From a virus, in the IMG/VR virus record IMGVR_UViG_3300044562_000007: a stretch of 40,533 bases of DNA; one strand, written 5' to 3'. Numbering within the stretch: the first letter of the stretch is position 1; every line of letters starts with the position of its first letter. The notes beneath the pieces were generated by a model. That model did no database searches and was not told the DNA's origin. It saw only the letters and a list, made by a program, of their open reading frames with translations. Below, in pieces: positions 3,329-37,579 of the stretch. The translations under genes and the position numbers were made by a program.

Positions 3329-6300
3329 ATGGCAGGAAATATTCCAATGGGATCCATGTCAACTGAAATCAAGTTAAATGGCTCTCAATCAGTTAAAACT
3401 TTACGTGAATTAAAACAAGCCGTTACTCAAGCCACTAGTGCTTGGAAAGCTCAAAGAGCTGAACTGTCTACTATTGGCAAGTCAACAGAAGCTGCAGAAG
3501 CTAAGTATAAAGGCTTAGCAGAAACGATTAAAAAGCAAAAAGATTATATTTCTGGTTTGCAAGAAGCTCAAAAGCACTTAACAGAAGCCCAGAAGTCTGT
3601 TGATCGTTCTACTAAAGAAGGTCGGCAAGAATACGGTAAGTATAATGAAGCTTTGCAGAAAAATGAAACTAGAATTCATTCTGCTGAGCAAAAATTAGCT
3701 TCATTAACTAATCAGCAAACTAAAGCTAAGTCATCTTTGAACTATTACAAGTCTGGTTTAGCTGATGTTCAAAAACAATTAAAAACTAATGAGTCAGTTG
3801 CTAAGTCTTACGTGGTACGACTTGAAGCAGAGGGTAAAGGCTACGAGTCTGCAAAAGCTAAATTAAATTCTTATAAGGATTCTTTAGCTAATTTACGTAA
3901 GCAACAATCTATTCAAACTAGTGAACTCTCTCGTATTGCTCGTGAGACAGGAAAATCAAGCGATGCCTATAAACGTCAAGAGGTCAGAGTTAATCAAACC
4001 GCAACTAGCATTGCTAAATTAAACAGCAAGATTAAATCTAGTCAAACTGAAGTTAATAAATTAAATCCTCATGGTTTTAATAAATTAGCTAATGGTGCCC
4101 AACATGTAACTAATGTGGCTGAAAAAATGAAATCAGGTTTAAAACATGCCTGGGATAATGTTAAAACTGGCGCAACTGCCGCAGCTGCTGGCATTGGTGC
4201 TGTGGGTGCAGCTGCTCTCTCTGGTGCTAAAAAAGCTGGTAATTTACAACAAGTCTATAAAGAAATCACTAACTTAGCAGTTACTGGCGGTGAGAAACAA
4301 CGTGAAGCGATTAAAAATGTAACTGCAATGCAACGTCAAGGTCGTGATATGTCAATCAAGTACGGCAAATCACAACAAAACATTGCAGAAGCTTTCGAAG
4401 ATTTAGTAAAGCGTGGTTACACCACTAAGCAAGCCTTAGGGGCTATGCGAACCGAATTACAAGGCTCAGTTGCTTCAGGTGACGATTTCAAGGACGTTGT
4501 ATCTGTATCAAGTACTGTGCTTGAATCTTTCGGTATGCGTGCTAAGACAGTTGCTCAAATGACCAGCAATACTAAGCGTGCGGTTAACGAATTAGCTTAT
4601 GCGGCTGATATGACTTCCACAGGATTTAAAGACTTAGGATATGGGATGTCCTATGTCGGATCATCTGCTCATCAAGCAGGTTTCAACTTATCTGAAACTG
4701 CTAGTGCAATGGGTATCTTAAGTAATAATGGTTTGGAAGCGTCAAAAGCTGGTACTGGACTTAATCAGGTTATTAACCGTTTGTCTGATGCTACTGGTAA
4801 GTTAGTTAAGGGCGATAAAAAGAATGCGTTAGCTAAATTAGGTATCAAACCTAAAGAAATTACTGATTCAACTGGCAAACTTAAAAACTTAGCTACTGTC
4901 TTTGGTGTTTTAAATAAACACATGAAAGGCATGACTAAGGTTCAAAAAATTAATATCATGAAATCCCTCTTTGGGATGACTGGTGAACAAGCTGGTTTAA
5001 TCTTAGCTAAGTACAACAAGCAACTTGGTTCATTAAGTAAGAATGTTCTTAAAGCTGGTAAGAATGGTAAATATGTCGCTGATTTGTCTGCTAAAAATAG
5101 CCAAACTGCAAAAATGCAGATGGCTAGGTTAAAGCAGGCTGGGAATGCATTTGCCATGACTCTTGGTGCAAAAATGCTACCAGCAATTAATGAAGCTGGC
5201 GATTCTTTAGTTGTCTTTTTAACTAAGTCAAAAGATGGAAAACGTCTTACTAATGATTTTGCTAAGGCTGTGGAAGGCTTAGCAACTGCTTTAGCTAATA
5301 CAATCAAATGGATTGCACATCACAGAACAGAAACTAAATTAATTGCTGAAGGCTTGGGCGCTGCTTATGGTGTTGTAAAGTTAGCCAGTTTTGTCCAATG
5401 GCTTAATAAAACTCGTCTTGCTTTCAAAGGTTTAAGCATTGGCTCCAAGCTACTAAGTGGCTGGGATAAATCTCTAATTCATTTATCCAATGCTAAAACT
5501 AGAATCGGTAAAATTGCTTCTGCAATTGGCAAGCTAAACGGTAAATTTCTAAGTGTTGGTAAAAAACTTGGAACTGCTTTAGGCAATGGACTTAAGAGCG
5601 TTGGCGACAAAGCTTTATCTGCTGGCAAATTCCTTGGTTCAAAAATCACTCAAGGAATTAAAGCAACTATGAAATTTAGCATGGGCAAACGTCTTGCCAC
5701 TGGTGCTTTAGCTGGTGCAGCAGTTGCCACTCCTGAAGTGGTTAATGCTATAAAAGACCGTCGCTCTGCTAATAAACGTTCACAGGACATTGGCGGTGCT
5801 GTGGGTGCATTAGCTGGTGGTACATTAACCAGCATGATACCTGTAGTTGGACCGCTTTTAGCTCCTGTTGGGGCTATTATCGGTAAATATGCTGGTCAAT
5901 GGGGCGGTAAAGCCGTTAATAGTTTCACTAAAGGCTGGCAGAAAAACAAGCCACCTAAAAAGTTCTGGTCTCTTGAAAATCTTGGCTACTCTGCCCATAA
6001 CATGTGGAAGGGATTTAAGAAATCCGTTACTAATGTTGCTAAATGGTTCAAGAAAAATTGGAAAGAAGTTGGAGTTTACTTTATTAGCCCACTCGTCGGC
6101 GCTATCAACTCACTGTATAAACACAACAAGAAATTCCACAAGTGGGCAAATGACTTAGCTAAGGGCTTTAGAAACGCATGGAAGGGCATGACTAAGTGGT
6201 TTAAGAACTTAGGCAAGAATATGGCTAAGGGACTTAAGTCAGCTTGGAAAGGTATGGCTAAATGGTTTAGTAACATTGGCAAGGGCGTGCGTAATGCATG

Positions 6301-9300
6301 GCATTCAATGACCAGTTGGTTTACTAGACTTGGTTCTGCTATGTCTAGGGGACTTAAAGCCACATGGCATACAGTAGCTAGATGGTTTGGCGGTATTGCT
6401 CGTGGAGTCCAACGTGTTTGGTCAGGAGTGCCCCACTTCTTTGGTCGTGTAGGTTCTGCATCAGTAAGACTATTTAAATCAGCATGGCATGGCGTTACTT
6501 CATGGTTTGGCGGTATTATCAACGGTATCAAGAAAGCATGGGATAATTTCTTCGGTGGCATCAGTAGTACCGTTAAAGTCATCGGTAAATTGCTTGGTGG
6601 CAAGGTTAAGGTTGGTAATGTTCATTTAGCAAATGGTACTGATTGGAAGAAGCGTTATGGTTATCCAGCTATCTTAAATGATGGCTCAGATAGCCCAGCC
6701 ACAGGCAATCGTGAGGGCATTCTTAATCCTGACGGCACTGTGGAAGTTCAACAAGGCACTAATGTACCTCGCTGGATTTTCCCATGGCAAGATGTAATCA
6801 ATGCTCACGATATGGCCCGTATTTTTGGACGCTCAGCACGTTTAGCTAACGGTACAGTTAACTTACGCAGTCTTGAAACTAACGACCCTACAAAGCTCTT
6901 ATCAACTCTGACAAGACTTATCAAAAAGAAATACGATGAAGATCGGCAACATCACGAAAAACAGAGACAACGTCATGATCGAAATGATAATGACAGAGCT
7001 GTTGAACGTGAGCGTCTTATTAAACAAGAACACGATGCTAAATCCGAAAGAACTAAAATTGCTAAAGAAATCCGTGAGGCTTTAAGTAAAGGCAGAAATA
7101 CTAAAGGCTTAACTGCTCAATTTAATGCATTAACTAAACATATTTCTAACTTTAAACATTCGATTGCTAAAACAAACCCTCATCATGGTCAAGTGTACGT
7201 TGACGAAGGTCTTTTGATTGGTGCAAAGTCAAGAATTGGTAAATCCAAGTGGATTAGTGATGCATTATTTAAGAAACTGACTACTAAGCCTAAGGCAACT
7301 CATAAACGGGCTTCCACAAGAAAGCATAGAACTACTAGAAGACGTTCCTATAGTTCACGTTCTTACTCTTCTGTATCTGTTCCTAAAGTACGCACTTCAA
7401 ATGTATCTGTTGGAGTCAGTTCTAAATCAGTAATTGTGTCCGCTAAAGTTGTGGGTACTAAAAATGTTAAGGCTCTTGAAAAAACAATGAAGCGGATTAA
7501 GGGCGGTACTCGCAAGATTACTGTTAAAGCTAAAGGTAGTAAGTCGCTTAAATCACTTGCTAAAACTGTTAAAAAAGTTAAAGGCAAGACAAGCTATATT
7601 AAAGTTAAAACTTCTGGTACTCATAGTCTTAAATCTTTAAGTAGTCATATTGCATCTGTACATGAACGAGTAAATTCTTTAAACAAATCTGTTAAAAAGA
7701 CCAAATTTGGTACTGATATTGCTGAACAAGCTGGAAAAGCTACTAAGGCTTTAAAAGGTGAAGGCAATTTTGCTAAAGTAATCAATATCATGTCTAAGAA
7801 ATCTACTAAAGATTTCAAGGACATGGTTAAGAGCATTAACAAAGATACAAATAAAATCAGAAAATCTACAGAATCTGATTTCTCTAATATGTACAAAAAA
7901 TCCTATTCATCTATGAATAGGCTGCACAGTGGTGTAATTAGATTAGCAAAGTCTACTGCTAGTGGTTTTGGCAATGCTATGAAGAAAATGGTTAGTTATG
8001 CTAGTGATTCTATGAGAGGAACTATTAGACAGATTAACCGTGGTATTCGTGGCATTGACCGTGTATTGAAGCAATTTGGTGGTAACAGTAGTGTTATCAA
8101 CCCAGTTCACTTTGCTGGTGGTACTGATGCTAATGGCCGCTTAACTCATGATACTTTAGCAGTGGTTAATGATGCTACTACTGGTCCACGGCAGGAAGCA
8201 ATTGTAACTGACCAAAATGATGTCATTATTCCACACGGCGATAATCGTCCAATGATGCTACGCAAAGGCTGGGGCGTTTTAAATGGCACTCAAACTCAAA
8301 GCTTAGGGCTTCCACACTTTGCTAAGGGTACTGGCGTTAAGAAAGATGCGCTTAGAAAATTAGCTGAAAATTCTTTGAAGCATTTTGCTGATAGTTTCAA
8401 ATCAATGTTCACTAAAAACATTCCTTCAAGTGGCTCAGACTTGACGCAAGGTGCAACTGACTTAGGCAAAAACTCTGGCACTCACTACGGTAATCCGTGG
8501 AGCAATGCAATGTGGACGGTCATTAATAATGCCATTGGCACTGGTGGCGGTACACGAGCAGCATTTCTTAGATATGCTAAAGAAACTTTTGATGGTGTTA
8601 AATACTTAATGGGTGCTGCAAGCAAGACATTATCTGACTGTTCAGGTATGGTAATGCAGGCTTTGAGACACTTCGGAATTGATATTGGTCGTACTACTGT
8701 TGATATGGCTAACAGCTCAGGTACTAAATACTTAGGTAAATCGCTATCTAAGACTAAACCAGGTGACCTTGTAATTTTCGGGCATGGAACTGGTGCAGCA
8801 GGTCACGTTGGCATCATCAATAATCCAGCTAAAGGTACAATGTTCAACGAAACACCACCTTATGCAAGAATCAGTAAGATTTCTGATGCGATGAGCATGG
8901 GCTATGGCTATTACAGAGTTAAAGGCTTGCACGATGCTTCCAAGAATCATCCCAAAGCTGATCCTCGTTTGATGGCTTTAGCAAAGCGTGAACTTGGTCA
9001 TAAAGCTTTAAGTTGGATAAGTGATACATTATCTGAAAATGAAGGCTCAATGGCTGGTAAACCAACTGGTGATCACTTGCATTGGATGAAACAAGCTCAC
9101 ATTCCTGAAAAAGATTGGTCAAGCATTAACTGGATTGTAAGCTCAGAATCTGGCTGGAATCCTCATATTGTCAACCCATCCAGCGGTACTTATGGTTTAG
9201 GACAGATGCAAAGCTATAACTTGCATTATTACACTAGACATGGATCTAAGAGCAATCCTATTGCACAATTAATGGGCATTATGGATTATATTCATGATCG

Positions 9301-20057: not shown

Positions 20058-20293
20058 TGTTGCACAAATGTTGCACAACAACAAATTAGGGGTAAAAAAA
20101 GACCTTGAAAGATCATTGATCTATCAAGGATTTTGGTTATTACACACGAGTAACTTTACCAGACTTTAAAGCCTTGGTTGAACTAAAATATGTGTTTTTA
20201 GAAAGTCTGAAGAAACACAAAGTACTGATTTTATGGGATTTGGTGTTTTAGAAAATCATAGAAATTTTAACCGTGTTGCACATTTGTTGCACA
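20058..20293. other. Putative attP region with candidate integrase arm-type sites
   Basis: It lies between the late-operon terminator and the 3' end of int. TGTTGCACA occurs four times, as two 11-bp-phased pairs at 20058/20069 and 20274/20285. Confidence 0.5.
20103..20129 (-). terminator. Imperfect 27-bp palindrome; probable int terminator on the minus strand, or the attP core
   Basis: CCTTGAAAGATCA-T-TGATCTATCAAGG pairs at 12 of 13 positions. On the minus strand it is followed by TCTTTTTTT. Confidence 0.45.
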
Positions 20294-21406
20294 TATATCA
20301 TCAAGTGAATTAATGATTTTGCTATCTTGCTTTTCTTTATATTCATCAAGCAAATAAGCATAGATTTTAAGAGTAGTAGTAATATTAGCATGACCAAGAC
20401 GTTTACTAATAGCAGAAATATCTACACCTTTGCTCAAAAGATATGCTACATGAGTATGTCTCAAACTGTGGAAGTGAAAATCTTGTTTATGAATATTGCC
20501 TTGGTCTAATGTACGTCTCAAAAACTGATTTACGGCACTGCTGCTTGGTGGCAATTCAGTACGTGGTGTAGCAAAAACAAAATCTAAGTTATTGGCTTTC
20601 AATTGCTTAATTTTTTTAAGCAAAAACGAATTTACTTTGATTTTTCTTACACTGGATTTTGTTTTAGTAGGCCCAAGTTTCTTAGTATTACAATTCCACG
20701 ATTTTGTAATATTAATGGTGTTGTTTTTGAAGTTAATATCTGACCATTTCAATGCAGATAATTCACCAATACGAGCGCCAGTAAAAATACCTGCTAGAAC
20801 TAAATATTTGCTGGTGTAGCGAGTATTTAAATCAGTCAGGCATAATTGTACCAGCTTACGCAATTCCTTCATATTGAGGTACTGAACGTGCTTTTCAGCG
20901 TTCTTATTACCAGTAATTGTTGTTCGATTAGTAAAATTACGTTCAACCAAGCCGTCTTCTACTGCATTGCCAATACATGACTTAATCATAATATTAGTTT
21001 TACGTACAGTAGCAGGAGCATGTTTTTTGCCTAAATAATTTAAGAACTTTTGGTAATTTGATCTAGTAATATTTTTGATTTTAATATCACCAAAATAGTT
21101 TTCAATGTAATGATAATTTGTAATATACCGTTTTTGAGTTGATTTCCTAATTGAAGGGAATTTATAGGTTTCATACCAAGTTTTGAAATAGTCAGCAAAC
21201 ATAGGATTTTTGATAACATCCACACCTGAAAGAGATGCTGCTTCCATTTTGATGCCATATTCTTGTGCTTCCGCCTTGGTTTTGAAACCACCTTTGGATT
21301 TTTGCCTTAATACTGAAACGTTCTTTTGCTTTTTTCGATCCCAACGTGTCTCACGTTTGGAAAATCTAACATACCAGGTTTTGCCACGTTTCTTTATTGA
21401 TGCCAT
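20267..21406 (-). CDS. int: Tyrosine integrase (site-specific recombinase, phage integrase family)
   Basis: 379 aa with ARIGEL (Arg), HSLRHTH (His-x-x-Arg) and GHANITTTLKIYAYL (His...Tyr) catalytic motifs. Confidence 0.95.
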   Translation of the reverse strand: MASIKKRGKTWYVRFSKRETRWDRKKQKNVSVLRQKSKGGFKTKAEAQEYGIKMEAASLSGVDVIKNPMFADYFKTWYETYKFPSIRKSTQKRYITNYHYIENYFGDIKIKNITRSNYQKFLNYLGKKHAPATVRKTNIMIKSCIGNAVEDGLVERNFTNRTTITGNKNAEKHVQYLNMKELRKLVQLCLTDLNTRYTSKYLVLAGIFTGARIGELSALKWSDINFKNNTINITKSWNCNTKKLGPTKTKSSVRKIKVNSFLLKKIKQLKANNLDFVFATPRTELPPSSSAVNQFLRRTLDQGNIHKQDFHFHSLRHTHVAYLLSKGVDISAISKRLGHANITTTLKIYAYLLDEYKEKQDSKIINSLDDICATNVQHG

Positions 21407-32775: not shown

Positions 32776-32808
32776 ACTATTGAGCGTGGAAAACTCAATA
32801 GTTTTTTT
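32776..32808 (+). terminator. Rho-independent terminator
   Basis: 9-bp stem ACTATTGAG / CTCAATAGT, a 9-nt loop, then TTTTTT. Confidence 0.75.
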
Positions 32809-32826
32809 ATTTTTATTAAACAATTA

Positions 32827-32901
32827 AAACGCAATTTTATTGGTATGGAACTAAATAAAAAGTATTTTGAAATAGCTAAGCAAAGAATCGAAAATGCTTA
32901 G
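32827..32901 (+). pseudogene. 3'-terminal remnant of a DNA methyltransferase gene
   Basis: It translates as KRNFIGMELNKKYFEIAKQRIENA-stop. This matches the conserved C-terminal R-x-F-I-G-x-E-x-N..Y..IA..RI motif of N6/N4 DNA methylases. No methylase-like sequence lies upstream. Confidence 0.5.
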
Positions 32902-32922: not shown

Positions 32923-33474
32923 ATGCCACGAGTGCGCAGATGCCGTTTCCCAAACTGTCATGAGTTTGCCTTTATGCCAAACCATTATTGCAAGAAACAC
33001 ATTGAACACGAAAAAGAATTTCGAGAACGCAATGAACGTTTCCGCCATAAACGCAGCAAGCAGTCACAATGGCGCTACAATCACATTACACGTTACCGTA
33101 ATCCAGTTAAAGCGGAACAAAACAGGTTTTATCATTCAAAACAATGGCGTGAGATGCGATCAATAGTCTTTAAACGTGATTACCATCTATGCCAGTATTG
33201 CAAGACTAGAGGTCAGTTAACCGAAGGTAACATTGTAGATCACGTGCTACCAGTTGAAAGGTATCCAGAACATATGAAAGACTTAGATAACATGGTCACC
33301 TGCTGTGGAAGATGCCACTACTGGAAGACACGTTTTGAAGAGCAATATTACGGGACTGGTCTGCATGGTAAACCAACGAATAATCCACCACTAACGGACG
33401 TAAAATTGATTGCTAAATTATCACAAAGACTTACTAACGAACGACACCGTACAAGCCCATATAATCGTTCCTAA
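32923..33474 (+). CDS. HNH endonuclease (terminase-associated)
   Basis: CQYC...DHVLP...N..TCCGRCH is an HNH/zinc motif. The gene lies directly upstream of terS, as in cos-type HK97-like packaging modules. Confidence 0.9.
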   Translation: MPRVRRCRFPNCHEFAFMPNHYCKKHIEHEKEFRERNERFRHKRSKQSQWRYNHITRYRNPVKAEQNRFYHSKQWREMRSIVFKRDYHLCQYCKTRGQLTEGNIVDHVLPVERYPEHMKDLDNMVTCCGRCHYWKTRFEEQYYGTGLHGKPTNNPPLTDVKLIAKLSQRLTNERHRTSPYNRS

Positions 33475-33619: not shown

Positions 33620-34072
33620 ATGAACAAAGTTGATCTATCAAAGCCAAAAGTACCTAATCAAGCACCTAAATGGCTTGGAACTTACGGCAAATACCTGTAC
33701 CCAAAGCTTGCCACTTATCTAAATAAGAATGACAAAATCTTACGAGCTGATGAATATTTACTTCAACAATACTGTTCAGCCTACGACACCTACCGCATGG
33801 CTTATGACGATATTCAAGAACATGGTATTCAGCAACCTATCTATAAAACCGTCATTTCTCCTGTGGATGGAAAGGTGGCAGCTAAGAACTTTCAAGGATA
33901 CAAGAAAAATCCAGCTTATCAGATTATGTCTGATTCGCTAAAGCAGATGAACACGATAGGTAAAGAACTGGGCTTAAGTCCAAAAGCTAGAAACCAGTTA
34001 ATGGAACTGAATACACCTAAAAATGATGATGCTAAATCAGCTGTTGCAAGTTTAAAGGAGTTTTTCGCATAA
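33620..34072 (+). CDS. terS: Terminase small subunit (P27-like family)
   Basis: 150 aa with PKWLGTYGKYLYPKLATYL...LLQQYCSAYDTY, typical of P27-type small terminases. It lies between the HNH and terL genes. Confidence 0.8.
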   Translation: MNKVDLSKPKVPNQAPKWLGTYGKYLYPKLATYLNKNDKILRADEYLLQQYCSAYDTYRMAYDDIQEHGIQQPIYKTVISPVDGKVAAKNFQGYKKNPAYQIMSDSLKQMNTIGKELGLSPKARNQLMELNTPKNDDAKSAVASLKEFFA

Positions 34073-34076
34073 AAAA

Positions 34077-34094
34077 ACGACCATTATCGGTCGT
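34077..34094 (-). terminator. Hairpin terminator (minus-strand T-run; may also attenuate terS read-through)
   Basis: Stem ACGACC / GGTCGT with a 6-nt loop. On the minus strand it is followed by TTTTTTT. Confidence 0.55.
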
Positions 34095-34221
34095 CTTCAT
34101 TTAGCATTTTTTGTACTGCTTCTTCTATCAGATTAGCTGCACTTGTATGTTTCTTTATTGCTAGAATTTTCAGTTTTTCAATTAAGTTTTCATCTAAAGT
34201 GGTAGTAAATTTTTTCTTCAT
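34084..34221 (-). CDS. Ribbon-helix-helix (CopG/Arc/MetJ-like) DNA-binding protein, 45 aa (not in the ORF track)
   Basis: Translation: MKKKFTTTLDENLIEKLKILAIKKHTSAANLIEEAVQKMLNEDDR. The layout is a beta-strand, helix, helix. GGAG RBS lies 7 nt upstream. Confidence 0.65.
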   Translation of the reverse strand: MKKKFTTTLDENLIEKLKILAIKKHTSAANLIEEAVQKMLNEDDR

Positions 34222-34242
34222 AATTATTCTCCTTACTTTTTA

Positions 34243-34292
34243 ATTATATCACTAATACGTATCTTGTCATTATACGTAAATACGTATATAAT
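34243..34292. promoter_or_regulatory. Back-to-back divergent promoters with TACGTA palindromic operators
   Basis: Plus strand: TTGTCA (34264..34269), 17 nt, TATAAT (34287..34292). Minus strand: ATGACA (34270..34265), 16 nt, TGATATAAT (34251..34243). Palindromes are ATACGTAT at 34255..34262 and TATACGTA-AA-TACGTATA at 34271..34288. Confidence 0.55.
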
Positions 34293-34311
34293 ATATGTGA
34301 GGTGAGAAATA

Positions 34312-35655
34312 ATGCCAAAAAGAAAAACAAATGCAGAATTTAGAAAACAAGTCTTTGATTTAGTTGGTGATGAATATGAATTCTTAGAGCCGTACCAAGG
34401 TCGTAAATTTAAAATTTGGGTTAGACATAATAAATGTAAAAGAAATTATAAAACAACGCCTGATACATTTTTATGTGGTTCTCGATGCCCATATTGTGCG
34501 AGAAAAATAAATTCCGAAAAGCACAGAAAAAGCCCAGAACAGTTTGCAAAAGAAGTTTTCAAATTAGTGGGTAATGAATACACTTTTTTAGAACCATATA
34601 AAGGTGTAGATATTAAAATTAAAGTTAAACATAATTTGTGTGGAAACATTTATGAGGTAACTCCGGATAATTTTTTAAGAGGTAAAAGATGTCCTTATGA
34701 GATGACAGGTTATCGCAAGCAAATGACTGAAAAAATCAACAAAAAATTAGCAATTAAGCATTTGCAATTAGTTCATTCATATAGTGGATCAGCACATAGA
34801 CTTTTAATCTTTTGCCAAAAATGTCATTTGTATTTTTATAGTTATTATTATTCAATAAAAGACAATTCAATAAGTTGCCCATTTTGTCACAAAAATAAAA
34901 TGGTTTCTATATGGGATGAATTTATGTTTAAAAAATATTTAGCCAAAGAAACTAAAAATGAATACAAATTAATTTCTTCTTTCGATGGAGTTGATAAACC
35001 TATAAAGCTACTACATATTAAATGCGGACATATATATAAGGTGAGACCAGCAGGATTTATAAGAGGATTTAGATGTGCTTTTTGTCGCTATAAAAAATTA
35101 AGCCAAAAATTTAGAATGTCACAAGAAAATTTTGCTAAAAGAATGCAACAAAAACATGGCAATGAATATGAAATTTTGGGTAAATACATTAACGCAAAAA
35201 CTAAAATAAAGTTTTTACATAGAAATTGTGGTAGAACTTTTTACACAGTGCCATATAGTATTTTAAATGGAACTGGATGCCCTTATTGTTGCCAAAGCCA
35301 TGGTGAAAAATTTATAGCTCAATATTTAAAAAAACATTATATTAAATATAATATTCAAAAGAGATTTGAAAATTGTAGAAATAAACGATCACTACCATTT
35401 GACTTTTATTTGCCAACATTGAAAACATGCATAGAATTTGATGGCCAACAGCATTATGAGCCAATAGATTTTTTTGGTGGTCAAATGCAATTTGATAAAC
35501 AACAACAAAATGATGCAATTAAAGATAATTTTTGCCAAAAACATCATATTAGATTAATTCGTATTAGGTATGATCAAAATGTAAATGAAGTTTTAAATCA
35601 TGAATTAAAACCAATTAAAGAATCTATAAATTATAAGCAGTTATCACTTTTATAA
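34312..35655 (+). CDS. Five tandem Zn-ribbon-like modules fused to a C-terminal Vsr/DUF559-like (PD-(D/E)xK-type) endonuclease domain
   Basis: 447 aa. A module of about 55-60 aa repeats five times: F..V..LVG.EY..L..Y.G...KI...H..CG..Y...P..FL.G..CP.C. The C-terminus LPFDFYLPTLKTCIEFDGQQHY...IRLIRI matches the ..DF......E.DG..H signature. Confidence 0.7.
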   Translation: MPKRKTNAEFRKQVFDLVGDEYEFLEPYQGRKFKIWVRHNKCKRNYKTTPDTFLCGSRCPYCARKINSEKHRKSPEQFAKEVFKLVGNEYTFLEPYKGVDIKIKVKHNLCGNIYEVTPDNFLRGKRCPYEMTGYRKQMTEKINKKLAIKHLQLVHSYSGSAHRLLIFCQKCHLYFYSYYYSIKDNSISCPFCHKNKMVSIWDEFMFKKYLAKETKNEYKLISSFDGVDKPIKLLHIKCGHIYKVRPAGFIRGFRCAFCRYKKLSQKFRMSQENFAKRMQQKHGNEYEILGKYINAKTKIKFLHRNCGRTFYTVPYSILNGTGCPYCCQSHGEKFIAQYLKKHYIKYNIQKRFENCRNKRSLPFDFYLPTLKTCIEFDGQQHYEPIDFFGGQMQFDKQQQNDAIKDNFCQKHHIRLIRIRYDQNVNEVLNHELKPIKESINYKQLSLL

Positions 35656-35664
35656 CTGTTTTTT
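35638..35664 (+). terminator. Rho-independent terminator at the end of the nuclease gene
   Basis: Stem CAGTTAT / ATAACTG with a 7-nt loop, followed by TTTTTT. It ends 22 nt before the terL ATG. Confidence 0.65.
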
Positions 35665-35686
35665 ATATGGTGAGGGGAGTGATGAA

Positions 35687-37579
35687 ATGAAAATTGATCT
35701 AACAAAAACTCATGATGTTTTAGGCACTTATAAAGTGATTAATTGGGCTAAGATAAAGAACAAATATCATGATGCTGGGACAAAATATTGCTTTGATGTT
35801 TTAGATGGCAAGAAACAAGCAGGATACAATATTCAGTTAGCTTGTTTTCGCCATTTAAGAGACCTGCAAAGGCAAAACACTAAAGAATTTCCTTATCATT
35901 ATGATATTAAACAAGTAGATCGACTTTTAAAGTTCGCTTCTATTTCGCCTAATGTTGATACTGGTGAGCCTACTAAATTAATGGACTGGCAGAAATTTAT
36001 TTTTAGTCAAATGATGGGCTGGCGTGATCGGGATGATGATAAACGATTTACCAGAGTTATTGTCTCTGTCTCACGTGGGCAAGGGAAAACCTATTTGATG
36101 GCAATTTTAGTAGCTTATAGTTTTCTAATTGAGTCTTTAGGGCTAGAAAACCAAGATTATTTAGTTGCTTCCATTAATTACAAGCAAACTATGAAAATCT
36201 TTGGCTATATTAAATCAATGCTTAGAAAAATTATTAATATTGAGCCATTTAAATCATTAGCTAAAGATGCTGGCTTAGAGCTACAATCTGAACAAATTAT
36301 TGAAAAGAAAACTAATAATATTTTAAGAGCCATTTCTCATGAAGCTGGGCAATACGACTCATATCACTTTAGAACTGCCGTTTTTGATGAAATTGGTGAA
36401 GTGAATACACGGAAAAGAATTTCTAAAATTATTTCTGGTCAAGTTAAGGTTAAAAACCATCAATTTGTGCAGATATCTACTGCTTATCCTGATCCTACAG
36501 TGCCATTTCACGAAGACGAAAAAATGGTTATTCAAGCTATGGAACAAGATTTCAAGCGTGAAGCTGATAGCTATCTAGGTTTAATCTGGTCACAGGACTC
36601 AGAAAATGAAGTTTATGATCCTCAAACATGGATTAAGTCCAATCCGCTTTTAGGCTTGCCAGATCAAAAAGAGAATCTATTGTCTGGCTTAAAAGATAAA
36701 CGTGATAATGACTTATTAACTGGTAATATTGCGGACTTTGAAAACAAGAACTTAAACTTGTGGCTGAAACAGTCAACCACAAGCTACTTAAATCTTAAAG
36801 ATGTTGAAAAGGCTGTTGATGATAGTTTTAAGATTGACGGTTTAAAAGCCTACATGGGCTTGGACTACTCAATGTTTTCAGATAATACAGCGGTTGGTTT
36901 TGCATTTCCTTATACTACTGCTGATGGTGTTCACAAATGGCATATGATGCAGCACTCTTTCATTCCGTGGCGACAAGCTGGGAGCATTGAAGCTAAAGAA
37001 AAACAAGATGGCTTGCCCTATCGTGAGTTAGCTAAGAAAGGCTATTGTACAATTACAGGACATCCACAAGGAATTATTAACCCTGAAGAAGTTTACAAGT
37101 GGATTCTGGACTTCACGCAGAAACATCATTTACAGGTTATCTTCTTCGGTTACGACCGTTATGGTAGTTATCAAGTTAAAAACATTACTGAAAGCTTGAA
37201 TGCCAATACGGATTGGATGATTCAAGATGTTAAACAACAAACAAGTGAGCTAGCTAATCCAACTAAGTTTCTACAAGAATCTTATGCAACTGGTAAAATC
37301 ACTCGTTTTGATGATCCAGTTGAAGAAAAAGCTCTTCTTAATGCTGTTGTTAAAGAAGATAAAATTGGTATTCAAATTGATAAAGTGAAAGCCACACTAA
37401 AGATTGATGTGGTTGATGCTGAAATTGATGCGATGTATCAAGCAATGTATCATTTTGAAGATTATGGCTTGATTAATGATAAGTCGCATGAAGTTGAAAG
37501 AATGACACAGAAGCAAGTACTAGATTGGTTTAACAATCCCAAATCTGGATTGCTGGGAGATGATTATTATTCTGATTAA
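35687..37579 (+). CDS. terL: Terminase large subunit
   Basis: 630 aa with the ATPase P-loop-like VSVSRGQGKT and a C-terminal nuclease region. It lies upstream of the portal gene. Confidence 0.95.
   Translation: MKIDLTKTHDVLGTYKVINWAKIKNKYHDAGTKYCFDVLDGKKQAGYNIQLACFRHLRDLQRQNTKEFPYHYDIKQVDRLLKFASISPNVDTGEPTKLMDWQKFIFSQMMGWRDRDDDKRFTRVIVSVSRGQGKTYLMAILVAYSFLIESLGLENQDYLVASINYKQTMKIFGYIKSMLRKIINIEPFKSLAKDAGLELQSEQIIEKKTNNILRAISHEAGQYDSYHFRTAVFDEIGEVNTRKRISKIISGQVKVKNHQFVQISTAYPDPTVPFHEDEKMVIQAMEQDFKREADSYLGLIWSQDSENEVYDPQTWIKSNPLLGLPDQKENLLSGLKDKRDNDLLTGNIADFENKNLNLWLKQSTTSYLNLKDVEKAVDDSFKIDGLKAYMGLDYSMFSDNTAVGFAFPYTTADGVHKWHMMQHSFIPWRQAGSIEAKEKQDGLPYRELAKKGYCTITGHPQGIINPEEVYKWILDFTQKHHLQVIFFGYDRYGSYQVKNITESLNANTDWMIQDVKQQTSELANPTKFLQESYATGKITRFDDPVEEKALLNAVVKEDKIGIQIDKVKATLKIDVVDAEIDAMYQAMYHFEDYGLINDKSHEVERMTQKQVLDWFNNPKSGLLGDDYYSD

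Follow-up and report, generated by a model that had tools for sequence, protein, structure and literature searches.

We analysed a 40,533-nucleotide stretch of viral DNA (IMG/VR record IMGVR_UViG_3300044562_000007), which we call the window and to which coordinates refer unless a related locus is named. At 34073–35686, a low-GC insert fills the space from the stop codon of terS (small terminase; 33620..34072, plus strand; Pfam Terminase_4, E = 6e-20; phrog_83) to the ribosome-binding site (RBS) of terL (large terminase; 35687..37579, plus strand; Pfam TerL_ATPase and TerL_nuclease; phrog_9, E = 2e-133). This insert, hereafter the cassette, consists of a minus-strand gene for a 45-amino-acid (aa) ribbon-helix-helix (RHH) protein (34084..34221), a 90-nt divergent promoter region (34222..34311) and a plus-strand gene for a 447-aa nuclease (34312..35655). 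An initial annotation, made from the sequence alone, had proposed both reading frames and both terminase neighbours, and we recovered them as described. The insert starts directly after the terS stop codon, and the boundaries proposed for it are accurate, since DNA homology to relatives ends at 34065–34070 and restarts at 35682–35686, 1–5 nt 5′ of the terL ATG. The AT-richness first gauged from short samples was also borne out: GC content is ~27% for the insert versus 36% for the window, and the nuclease gene (0.273), the RHH gene (0.29) and the intergenic region (0.233) all lie below terS (0.377), terL (0.347) and the window as a whole (0.364). The nuclease gene falls in the lowest 0.1% of same-sized segments within the window. 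By composition, the cassette is a foreign insertion.

Profile matches and modelling place the 447-aa protein as a member of the homing-endonuclease group that joins a CapR/DUF4379/DUF723-like array to a Vsr-like nuclease (PHROG 559). Over its whole length it matched phrog_559 (E = 2e-106), phrog_9084, named ‘homing endonuclease’ (E = 2e-30), and phrog_681. Searches with tblastn gave matches in 531 phage records, 240 of them covering at least 80% of the query, mostly from phages of Staphylococcus, Enterococcus, Bacillus, Streptococcus, Lactococcus and Lactobacillus; jumbo phages such as AR9 and PBS1 carry several copies of its homologues, and many of the homologues in phage records are annotated as homing endonucleases or group I intron proteins. 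In a large protein database, 1183 homologues were found at E ≤ 1e-5, with query coverage of 94–100%. Apart from 99% identical twins in two related loci (contig L120 and the L. helveticus prophage L131, GCA_013281095.1), the best homologue is ~40% identical. The architecture, which had seemed undescribed when judged from the sequence alone, is thus well represented, including in a recent publication (PMC12350094).

The N-terminal part of the protein (34333..35295, plus strand) is predicted to be an array of five CapR/DUF4379-like treble-clef zinc-finger modules of ~60 aa each. They start at residues 8, 75, 138, 200 and 270 and extend approximately over 34333–34509, 34534–34713, 34723–34899, 34909–35097 and 35119–35295. 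The repeat was initially considered unplaceable in any named family; it matches Pfam DUF4379, a ‘probable treble clef zinc finger’ (34.8 bits, cut-off 24.5), and the CapR homology domain (27.7 bits, cut-off 24.2), both above the gathering score. The five modules align on an H/C-x2-C ... C-x2-C pattern, the columns of which are invariant in a 47-sequence alignment. Module 2 reads CPYE and is without the fourth zinc ligand, a position at which at least 90% of 46 homologues have Cys; the module alignment and these homologues agree with the initial annotation on this loss and on all five module starts. Module 3 is CCCC rather than HCCC and is the most divergent. No Pfam NUMOD or helix-turn-helix (HTH) family matched the 447-aa protein, the N-terminal region of which is made up of the zinc-finger modules. 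An AlphaFold model built from the 47 sequences (predicted local distance difference test score (pLDDT) 87) shows five helix/three-strand/short-helix repeats followed by an alpha/beta domain.

This last domain (35296..35652, plus strand) is a predicted Vsr-like PD-(D/E)xK nuclease. Because the bead-like whole-chain model diluted the Foldseek search, we modelled the domain separately (pLDDT 91, predicted TM-score (pTM) 0.82). Against the Protein Data Bank (PDB), Foldseek then matched it to Vsr (1cw0_A; probability 1.00, TM 0.57, root-mean-square deviation (rmsd) 3.4 Å over 104 columns), with further matches to PvuRts1I, AbaSI and RAP-domain proteins. Against predicted viral structures it gave 169 matches at E ≤ 1e-3, several of them named homing endonuclease or group I intron protein. 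All residues that are invariant in the 47-sequence family alignment (E332, D364, E375, Q380, H381, D401 and K404) are present, and the conserved E...D...E...H...D pattern is, from the family alignment alone, compatible with an EDxHD motif. Fold and intact residues are therefore in line with the Vsr-type signature first read from the sequence.

No Pfam HNH family matched the 447-aa protein. The label ‘HNH endonuclease’ is wrong for it, because it has no HNH motif and its catalytic domain has a PD-(D/E)xK/Vsr-like fold. The same name is widespread in phrog_559 and among RefSeq homologues (for example, NC_029058.1 2825–3949, NC_031039.1 and NC_043027.1), where it looks like a propagated misannotation. 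With Rfam, neither the window nor three related loci showed an intron or any other RNA family where the cassette lies; an intron-borne nuclease was considered and rejected, as Rfam found no intron in the window, leaving a free-standing gene. The PHROG and Pfam matches, the fold and the lack of intron RNA in the window all agree with the earlier proposal of a free-standing homing-type endonuclease that combines a modular zinc-finger array with a Vsr-like domain.

The 45-aa protein is an Arc/CopG-like RHH protein and the predicted repressor of the cassette. It matches Pfam DUF6364 (29.0 bits, cut-off 27.3) and RHH_3 (22.6 bits, cut-off 21.6), falls just under the cut-off for RHH_1 (19.7 versus 20.5 bits), and matches phrog_3180, ‘Arc-like repressor’ (E = 8e-13). 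Its gene ends in a predicted intrinsic terminator (34077..34094, minus strand), a hairpin with a U7 tail (ΔG −15.1 kcal/mol, z −4.35) that none of 200 shuffled sequences equalled in stability and that is kept in the related loci L018 and L021; on the plus strand its T-tract is weak. The terminator scan predicted none between the nuclease stop codon (35655) and terL, so that late transcription from terS to terL would read through the cassette. In the divergent region, the nuclease gene has a candidate promoter on the plus strand (TTGTCA at 34264–34269, a 17-nt spacer and TATAAT at 34287–34292) and a GAGGTG RBS just 5′ of its ATG, and the RHH gene has one on the minus strand (−35 ATGACA at 34270–34265, a 16-nt spacer and −10 TATAAT with a TG extension at 34248–34243). 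The promoter scan ranked these the best two sites in the region, each with 11 of 12 consensus positions on its strand, and they stand back-to-back with overlapping −35 elements. The cassette had initially been credited with its own promoters and terminators; the promoters hold up as two conserved promoter-like sites, and of the terminators only that of the RHH gene was found.

Three ACGT-centred boxes overlie these promoters: ATACGTAT at 34255–34262, TATACGTA at 34271–34278 and TACGTATA at 34281–34288. The nuclease promoter has two of them between its −35 and −10 elements, and the RHH promoter has the third in its spacer. Of the eight copies of TACGTA in the window, three fall within 31 nt of this intergenic region, a clustering far beyond chance. 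In ten distinct cassettes, that of the window included, both promoters keep their −10 and −35 elements and the GAGG RBS is retained; the boxes are either conserved too or vary with their inverted symmetry kept, as in the symmetric variant TATACACA-AATA-TGTGTATA of L021; similarity vanishes past the nuclease ATG. Relative to L018 and L021, homology to the window runs from terS through the hairpin, the RHH gene and the intergenic region and stops at the nuclease start codon. The boxes are operator-like repeats overlapping both promoters, and the RHH protein is predicted to bind them. An exact search for a 29-nt operator/promoter string, too strict for a useful survey, returned only one viral contig and one 2.8-kb contig of a metagenome-assembled genome (MAG) cut at the site.

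To place the pairing of the two genes in context, we compared homologous loci, designated here by L numbers. Among 145 examined, an RHH gene had an adjacent nuclease gene in all 37 that were sufficiently complete, and every ‘RHH-only’ case among close homologues was cut by a contig end. Homologues close to the window RHH fall into 14 clusters, and all contexts retrieved place them at the terS–terL junction with a divergently oriented nuclease gene beside them. Their partners are HNH/HNH_5 proteins of 255, 285, 290 and 293 aa and CapR/DUF723-Vsr proteins of 331–341 aa. The 99% twin of the window nuclease in L120 and L131 is paired with a different 45-aa RHH protein, identical to that of the window at 16 of 45 residues (36%). 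This second RHH family (family B) has an unrelated intergenic region, with its own conserved repeat over conserved promoter elements, and is always divergent from a nuclease, be it CapR-Vsr, HNH_5 (214–251 aa) or I-HmuI-like NUMOD4-HNH_3 (194–209 aa). Cassettes occupy three sites: between terS and terL, between terS and the HK97-type packaging HNH gene that lies 5′ of it (in the window, 32923..33474, plus strand; phrog_144, E = 8e-37), and 3′ of a lysin gene.

The window RHH is most similar (84%) to RHH proteins that have an HNH partner, and its Vsr-type partner therefore reflects a swap. As judged from these loci, regulator and nuclease are swapped independently, with breakpoints at the nuclease start codon. 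We also considered whether the RHH protein is a packaging factor linked to terS, with which it travels in two comparisons, and rejected this, as family-B cassettes also lie 5′ of terS or after the lysin gene and the constant neighbour is the nuclease. Several loci merit separate mention. Contig L126 (Logan SRR11482338) encodes, at 42–923 on the minus strand, a 293-aa hybrid in which an N-terminal CapR/DUF4379-like zinc module, sharing 32% identity with the window protein across 165 aa, is fused to an HNH/HNH_5 domain; by homology, it shows that the zinc module is common to Vsr-type and HNH-type nucleases on one RHH platform. In L117 (1641–2429), the HNH nuclease is cut to 262 aa, with the end of the HNH motif lost, and is 99.6% identical to the 290-aa copy in L118; L117 looks like a decaying cassette. 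In the Leuconostoc-type prophages L138–L140, a family-B RHH gene and an I-HmuI-like nuclease gene lie 3′ of a GH25 endolysin gene at the prophage end, and in L138 the RHH gene (4001–4138) adjoins a RloB/AAA_21 (OLD/Gabija-like) gene pair. L131, the closest named relative of the packaging region of the window, has an additional HEG-like (homing endonuclease gene-like) product, a 202-aa NUMOD4-domain protein (6339–6947), 5′ of its packaging HNH gene.

The terS–terL junction itself is polymorphic. Our comparison set was 97 loci with a terL relative, drawn exclusively from Lactobacillaceae-type prophages and viral contigs; the terS–terL gap was measurable in 94. In 80 of these 94 the gap was at most 56 nt, that is, the genes are adjacent, and empty sites of 6 nt were found in L001 and L002 (L. 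kimbladii and L. huangpiensis); the presence/absence polymorphism that the initial annotation had proposed looking for in relatives does exist. The closest relatives (terL 81–88% identical) hold different cargo with the same boundaries as in the window: an RHH protein with a 255-aa Zn-ribbon/HNH nuclease (L018), an RHH protein with a 331-aa CapR/DUF723-Vsr nuclease only 25% identical to that of the window (L021), an N6/N4 DNA methyltransferase (L022, 5242–5964), a HicA/HicB toxin-antitoxin pair (L024, 3306–3936), a 43-aa open reading frame (ORF; L019, 2232–2363) and a 46-aa ORF (L026, 5741–5881). Small ORFs occupy the junction in other loci too. The junction is a general cargo hot-spot in this phage group.

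Sequence identity changes sharply around the cassettes. In the five loci with the 255-aa HNH nuclease, which represent four distinct sequences (L101 and L103 being the same), terS, the RHH gene and the nuclease gene are 93–100% identical, and the first 600 nt of terL are 61–84% identical among the distinct ones. The window TerS protein is 97% identical to that of the L026–29 group, the terL of which is only 67% identical, whereas the window terL is 88% identical to that of L018, the terS of which is only 58% identical. Compared with prophage L131, the window is 95.4% identical from 34304, at the nuclease RBS, to beyond terL, and the RHH gene and promoter are unrelated. Mosaic breakpoints thus lie at either edge of the nuclease ORF, as would be expected if nuclease-induced breaks seed recombination, a proposal made for other phages (PMC10055350). 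In three loci terL is itself in two ORFs (L134 608–2515, L135 608–2515 and L117 2–1454), with a TerL_ATPase part of 229 aa and a TerL_nuclease part of 356 aa separated by ~150 nt in which Rfam found no intron; the split could reflect a frameshift, an error of assembly or an intervening element that no model covers.

We interpret 34073–35686 as a mobile two-gene cassette that probably encodes a repressor-controlled, free-standing homing endonuclease, a reading to which we assign a probability of about 65%. The five zinc-finger modules, each independently folded like beads on a string, would read a long DNA target, which the C-terminal Vsr-like domain would cut. If the same cell harbours a related phage or prophage without the insert, the enzyme would cut at or near the empty terS–terL junction, and recombinational repair would copy the cassette, together with adjoining packaging-gene sequence, into the cut genome. 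The RHH protein would be the cassette’s own transcriptional repressor, binding the ACGT boxes and repressing both promoters. Its binding would keep nuclease expression low in lysogens and allow a burst of nuclease on entry into an RHH-free cell; read-through of the late operon from terS to terL would be a further source of nuclease. Cleavage of cassette-free alleles, its target near the junction, RHH binding and the timing of expression are what we infer. The partners of the bare 45-aa RHH protein have unrelated nuclease folds, which speaks for DNA-level control rather than neutralization of the antitoxin kind.

Several observations weigh against this interpretation or limit it. The DNA-binding array could be partly degenerate, because module 2 has lost a zinc ligand and module 3 is divergent. 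For the nuclease domain, the Foldseek E-values against the PDB are weak (~1e-2), and I-Bth0305I (3R3P) was not among the top 50 Foldseek hits, though Vsr itself was. PDB sequence searches with the single sequence and with the 47-sequence profile gave nothing meaningful. A profile comparison with E. coli Vsr was not significant (probability 0.1), which makes the Vsr relationship one of fold only; the same comparison pairs PFDFYLP...IEFDG with RPDFVV...IFTHG, the expected register. Promoter-like sites over the whole region are no more numerous than in shuffled sequence (16 versus 14 ± 3.6); the promoter call is one of the quality and conservation of two sites. The RHH regulator is not obligatory, because L022 and L074 have HEG-like nucleases without it. 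Finally, location alone is no proof of homing, because the junction also accepts HicAB, the methyltransferase and small ORFs, none of which is a homing gene.

Other functions have to be weighed on the same evidence. One is prophage defence or superinfection exclusion, in which a nuclease held by the RHH protein at a low constitutive level would cut incoming related phages that lack the insert or bear the target, to the benefit of both host and prophage. A sigma-70-type nuclease promoter independent of the late operon would suit such a role, as would the defence-like morons (HicA/HicB and the DNA methyltransferase) at the same junction in relatives and the weak PADLOC matches of the nuclease domain to PD-(D/E)xK defence components (best PDC-S69, E = 5e-5). 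However, PADLOC-DB 2.0 gave no system model beyond the generic nuclease fold and no match at all for the RHH protein; the partner nucleases all belong to homing-type families (CapR arrays, I-HmuI-like NUMOD4-HNH_3 and HNH_5); and, as homing predicts, the cassettes have essential packaging genes as neighbours and abrupt mosaic breakpoints at the same places. We consider defence unlikely, and the choice between it and homing is partly a matter of emphasis, as the two are not mutually exclusive. The analysis turned up nothing positive for packaging-site competition, which the initial annotation had also raised, and nothing for defence beyond the independent promoter, the defence-like cargo of relatives and weak fold-level hits. 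It is improbable that the nuclease is a decayed or domesticated copy that no longer homes and has either kept its zinc-finger array solely for regulation by DNA binding, like CapR in PLE satellites, or lost all function. CapR itself is a repressor derived from a homing endonuclease, module 2 has lost its fourth zinc ligand, module 3 is the most divergent, and the truncated HNH nuclease of L117 (262 versus 290 aa) shows that a related cassette can be shortened; yet the ORF is full length, all family-invariant residues of the nuclease domain are present, that domain is modelled with confidence (pLDDT 91), and a 99% identical copy has been kept in L120 and L131 alongside a different RHH protein.

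The RHH fold of the regulator also calls to mind a toxin-antitoxin-like addiction pair, in which the RHH protein would neutralize the nuclease by direct binding and so stabilize the cassette or the prophage. Many type II antitoxins are RHH proteins, a weak Pfam Antitox_RHH match was found (E = 0.0044, below the cut-off), and L024 carries the genuine pair HicAB at the same junction. We nonetheless find this very improbable: at 45 aa, the RHH protein is a bare fold with no room for a toxin-binding extension, the two genes are divergent rather than in an operon, one RHH family accompanies unrelated HNH and Vsr-like nucleases while one nuclease accompanies two RHH families that are 36% identical, and each RHH family has its own conserved operator-like repeats. 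The position between terS and terL might instead point to a packaging accessory, similar to the HK97-type HNH proteins that assist terminase at cos, HNH proteins adjoining terminase genes being known to assist cos cleavage (PMC10055350). This is hardly to be expected in a genome in which the canonical packaging HNH is already in place 5′ of terS; moreover, 80 of 94 related loci do without anything between terS and terL, the type of nuclease varies, and the cassette also occurs 3′ of the lysin gene, away from the packaging genes. The repressor-controlled homing endonuclease remains our preferred explanation.

Small regulators of potentially toxic nuclease genes are familiar from other mobile elements. 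The C proteins of restriction-modification systems are small operator-binding regulators that set the time and level of expression of a potentially toxic nuclease; they are HTH proteins and usually co-oriented with the nuclease gene. The homing endonuclease I-TevI represses its own promoter without a separate regulator. Both cases, as predicted for the window cassette, place a potentially toxic nuclease gene on a mobile element under a small repressor or autoregulator. By arrangement, the closest regulatory analogue and experimental precedent is the Arc protein of IS605, which binds motifs overlapping the −35 and −10 elements of divergent promoters and represses tnpB (bioRxiv 10.64898/2026.09.24.754181). 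Like the window RHH, it is a very small RHH protein of a selfish element, divergent from a nuclease gene and with motifs over back-to-back promoters; IS605 differs in being a transposon with an RNA-guided TnpB, for which control of tnpB and tnpA has been shown experimentally, whereas the window holds a phage homing cassette in which repression would be analogous. The regulatory partner had initially seemed undescribed, which holds for a dedicated account: our literature searches for a described pairing of RHH protein and homing endonuclease found only a passing remark in the same preprint that Arc homologues neighbour homing endonuclease genes (bioRxiv 10.64898/2026.09.24.754181).

The nuclease has closer published relatives. 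A study from 2025 defined proteins with CapR/DUF4379/DUF723-like modules and an EDxHD/Vsr-like nuclease as a large homing-endonuclease group with thousands of UniProt hits, a ‘large unrecognized outgroup’ of EDxHD/Vsr homing endonucleases (PMC12350094). Like the window protein, these have three to five zinc-finger modules of ~60 aa followed by a Vsr-like domain of ~100–120 aa, with the same Pfam signatures; the published examples are encoded within introns (group I or II) of jumbo and lytic phages, whereas the gene in the window stands free between the terminase genes of a temperate phage and has a dedicated RHH gene beside it. In phage homing endonucleases, tandem CapR-type zinc-finger arrays have been described as DNA-binding modules in the manner of ‘beads on a string’; such endonucleases often lie next to terminase genes and are found at boundaries of genetic exchange (PMC10055350). 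The T5orf172 endonucleases of ICP1 and other phages treated there resemble the window protein in their zinc-finger arrays, terminase-side position, domain shuffling and location at exchange boundaries, and differ from it in having a T5orf172/GIY-YIG-like catalytic domain instead of a Vsr-like PD-(D/E)xK domain and in having no dedicated repressor described for them. I-Bth0305I, the prototype of the EDxHD homing endonuclease family (PDB 3R3P; PMC3239194), is likewise phage-borne and has a C-terminal Vsr-like PD-(D/E)xK domain and N-terminal modular DNA-binding elements; those elements are of the NUMOD/HTH type and the enzyme is intron-encoded, in contrast to the zinc-finger modules and free-standing gene in the window, and the PDB sequence searches gave no match to it.

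The genome that carries the cassette belongs to a temperate siphophage of Lactobacillus (helveticus group). The window encodes a tape measure protein, a GH25 lysin, an integrase, a D5-type primase, a portal protein and a ClpP protease, and its genes run from tail and lysis through the integrase, replication and packaging to the first head genes (portal and ClpP protease) at the window end. Such an order points to a complete genome of ~40.5 kb, circularly permuted and belonging to a phage or an excised prophage, in which attP would be expected between the end of the lysin gene (19926) and the integrase gene (20267–21406, minus strand). No close deposited phage was found for the 5-kb region around the cassette, of which megablast against 50,697 phage records gave only a 71% match to terS of the L. 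gasseri phage phiadh. Just 5′ of the packaging HNH gene, at 32800–32898, lies a DNA methyltransferase remnant comprising only the C-terminal 33 aa; these share 67% identity with the corresponding end of the N6_N4 methyltransferase found at the terS–terL junction of L022. Methyltransferase-type cargo apparently once occupied, and then decayed at, the junction neighbouring terS–terL.

As a nuclease, the 447-aa protein is one more member of a described phage homing-endonuclease group and is ordinary for phages; what the cassette adds is an RHH/operator platform common to several nuclease classes, found only in passing in the literature searched. To our knowledge, the control of phage homing endonucleases has been worked out almost entirely in lytic T4-type phages, where it acts through late promoters, translational control and autorepression by I-TevI. 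In a temperate phage, the lysogen must tolerate a site-specific nuclease, a problem that would be simply solved by an RHH/operator module that is dedicated to the nuclease and can be swapped. We saw the module with three nuclease architectures, two RHH families and three insertion sites, in parallel with Arc–TnpB control in IS605. With its predicted operator, 45-aa repressor and empty sites, the cassette is a natural test system for the effects of homing endonucleases on packaging-gene mosaicism, and it may yield tools in the form of compact repressor/operator pairs and modular zinc-finger DNA-binding arrays. More tentatively, we suggest that, in temperate phages of Lactobacillales, the RHH gene and its operator-bearing, back-to-back promoters might together be a portable platform for the regulated expression of free-standing homing endonucleases, on which Vsr-like, HNH_5 and I-HmuI-like nucleases would be exchanged at the start codon. 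Control would resemble zygotic induction, with the nuclease silent in a lysogen and released in a burst when the phage enters a naive cell or when late transcription reads through. If so, cassette nucleases could be inter-prophage weapons as well as gene drives, and the platform could explain how selfish genes that make double-strand breaks persist in prophages.

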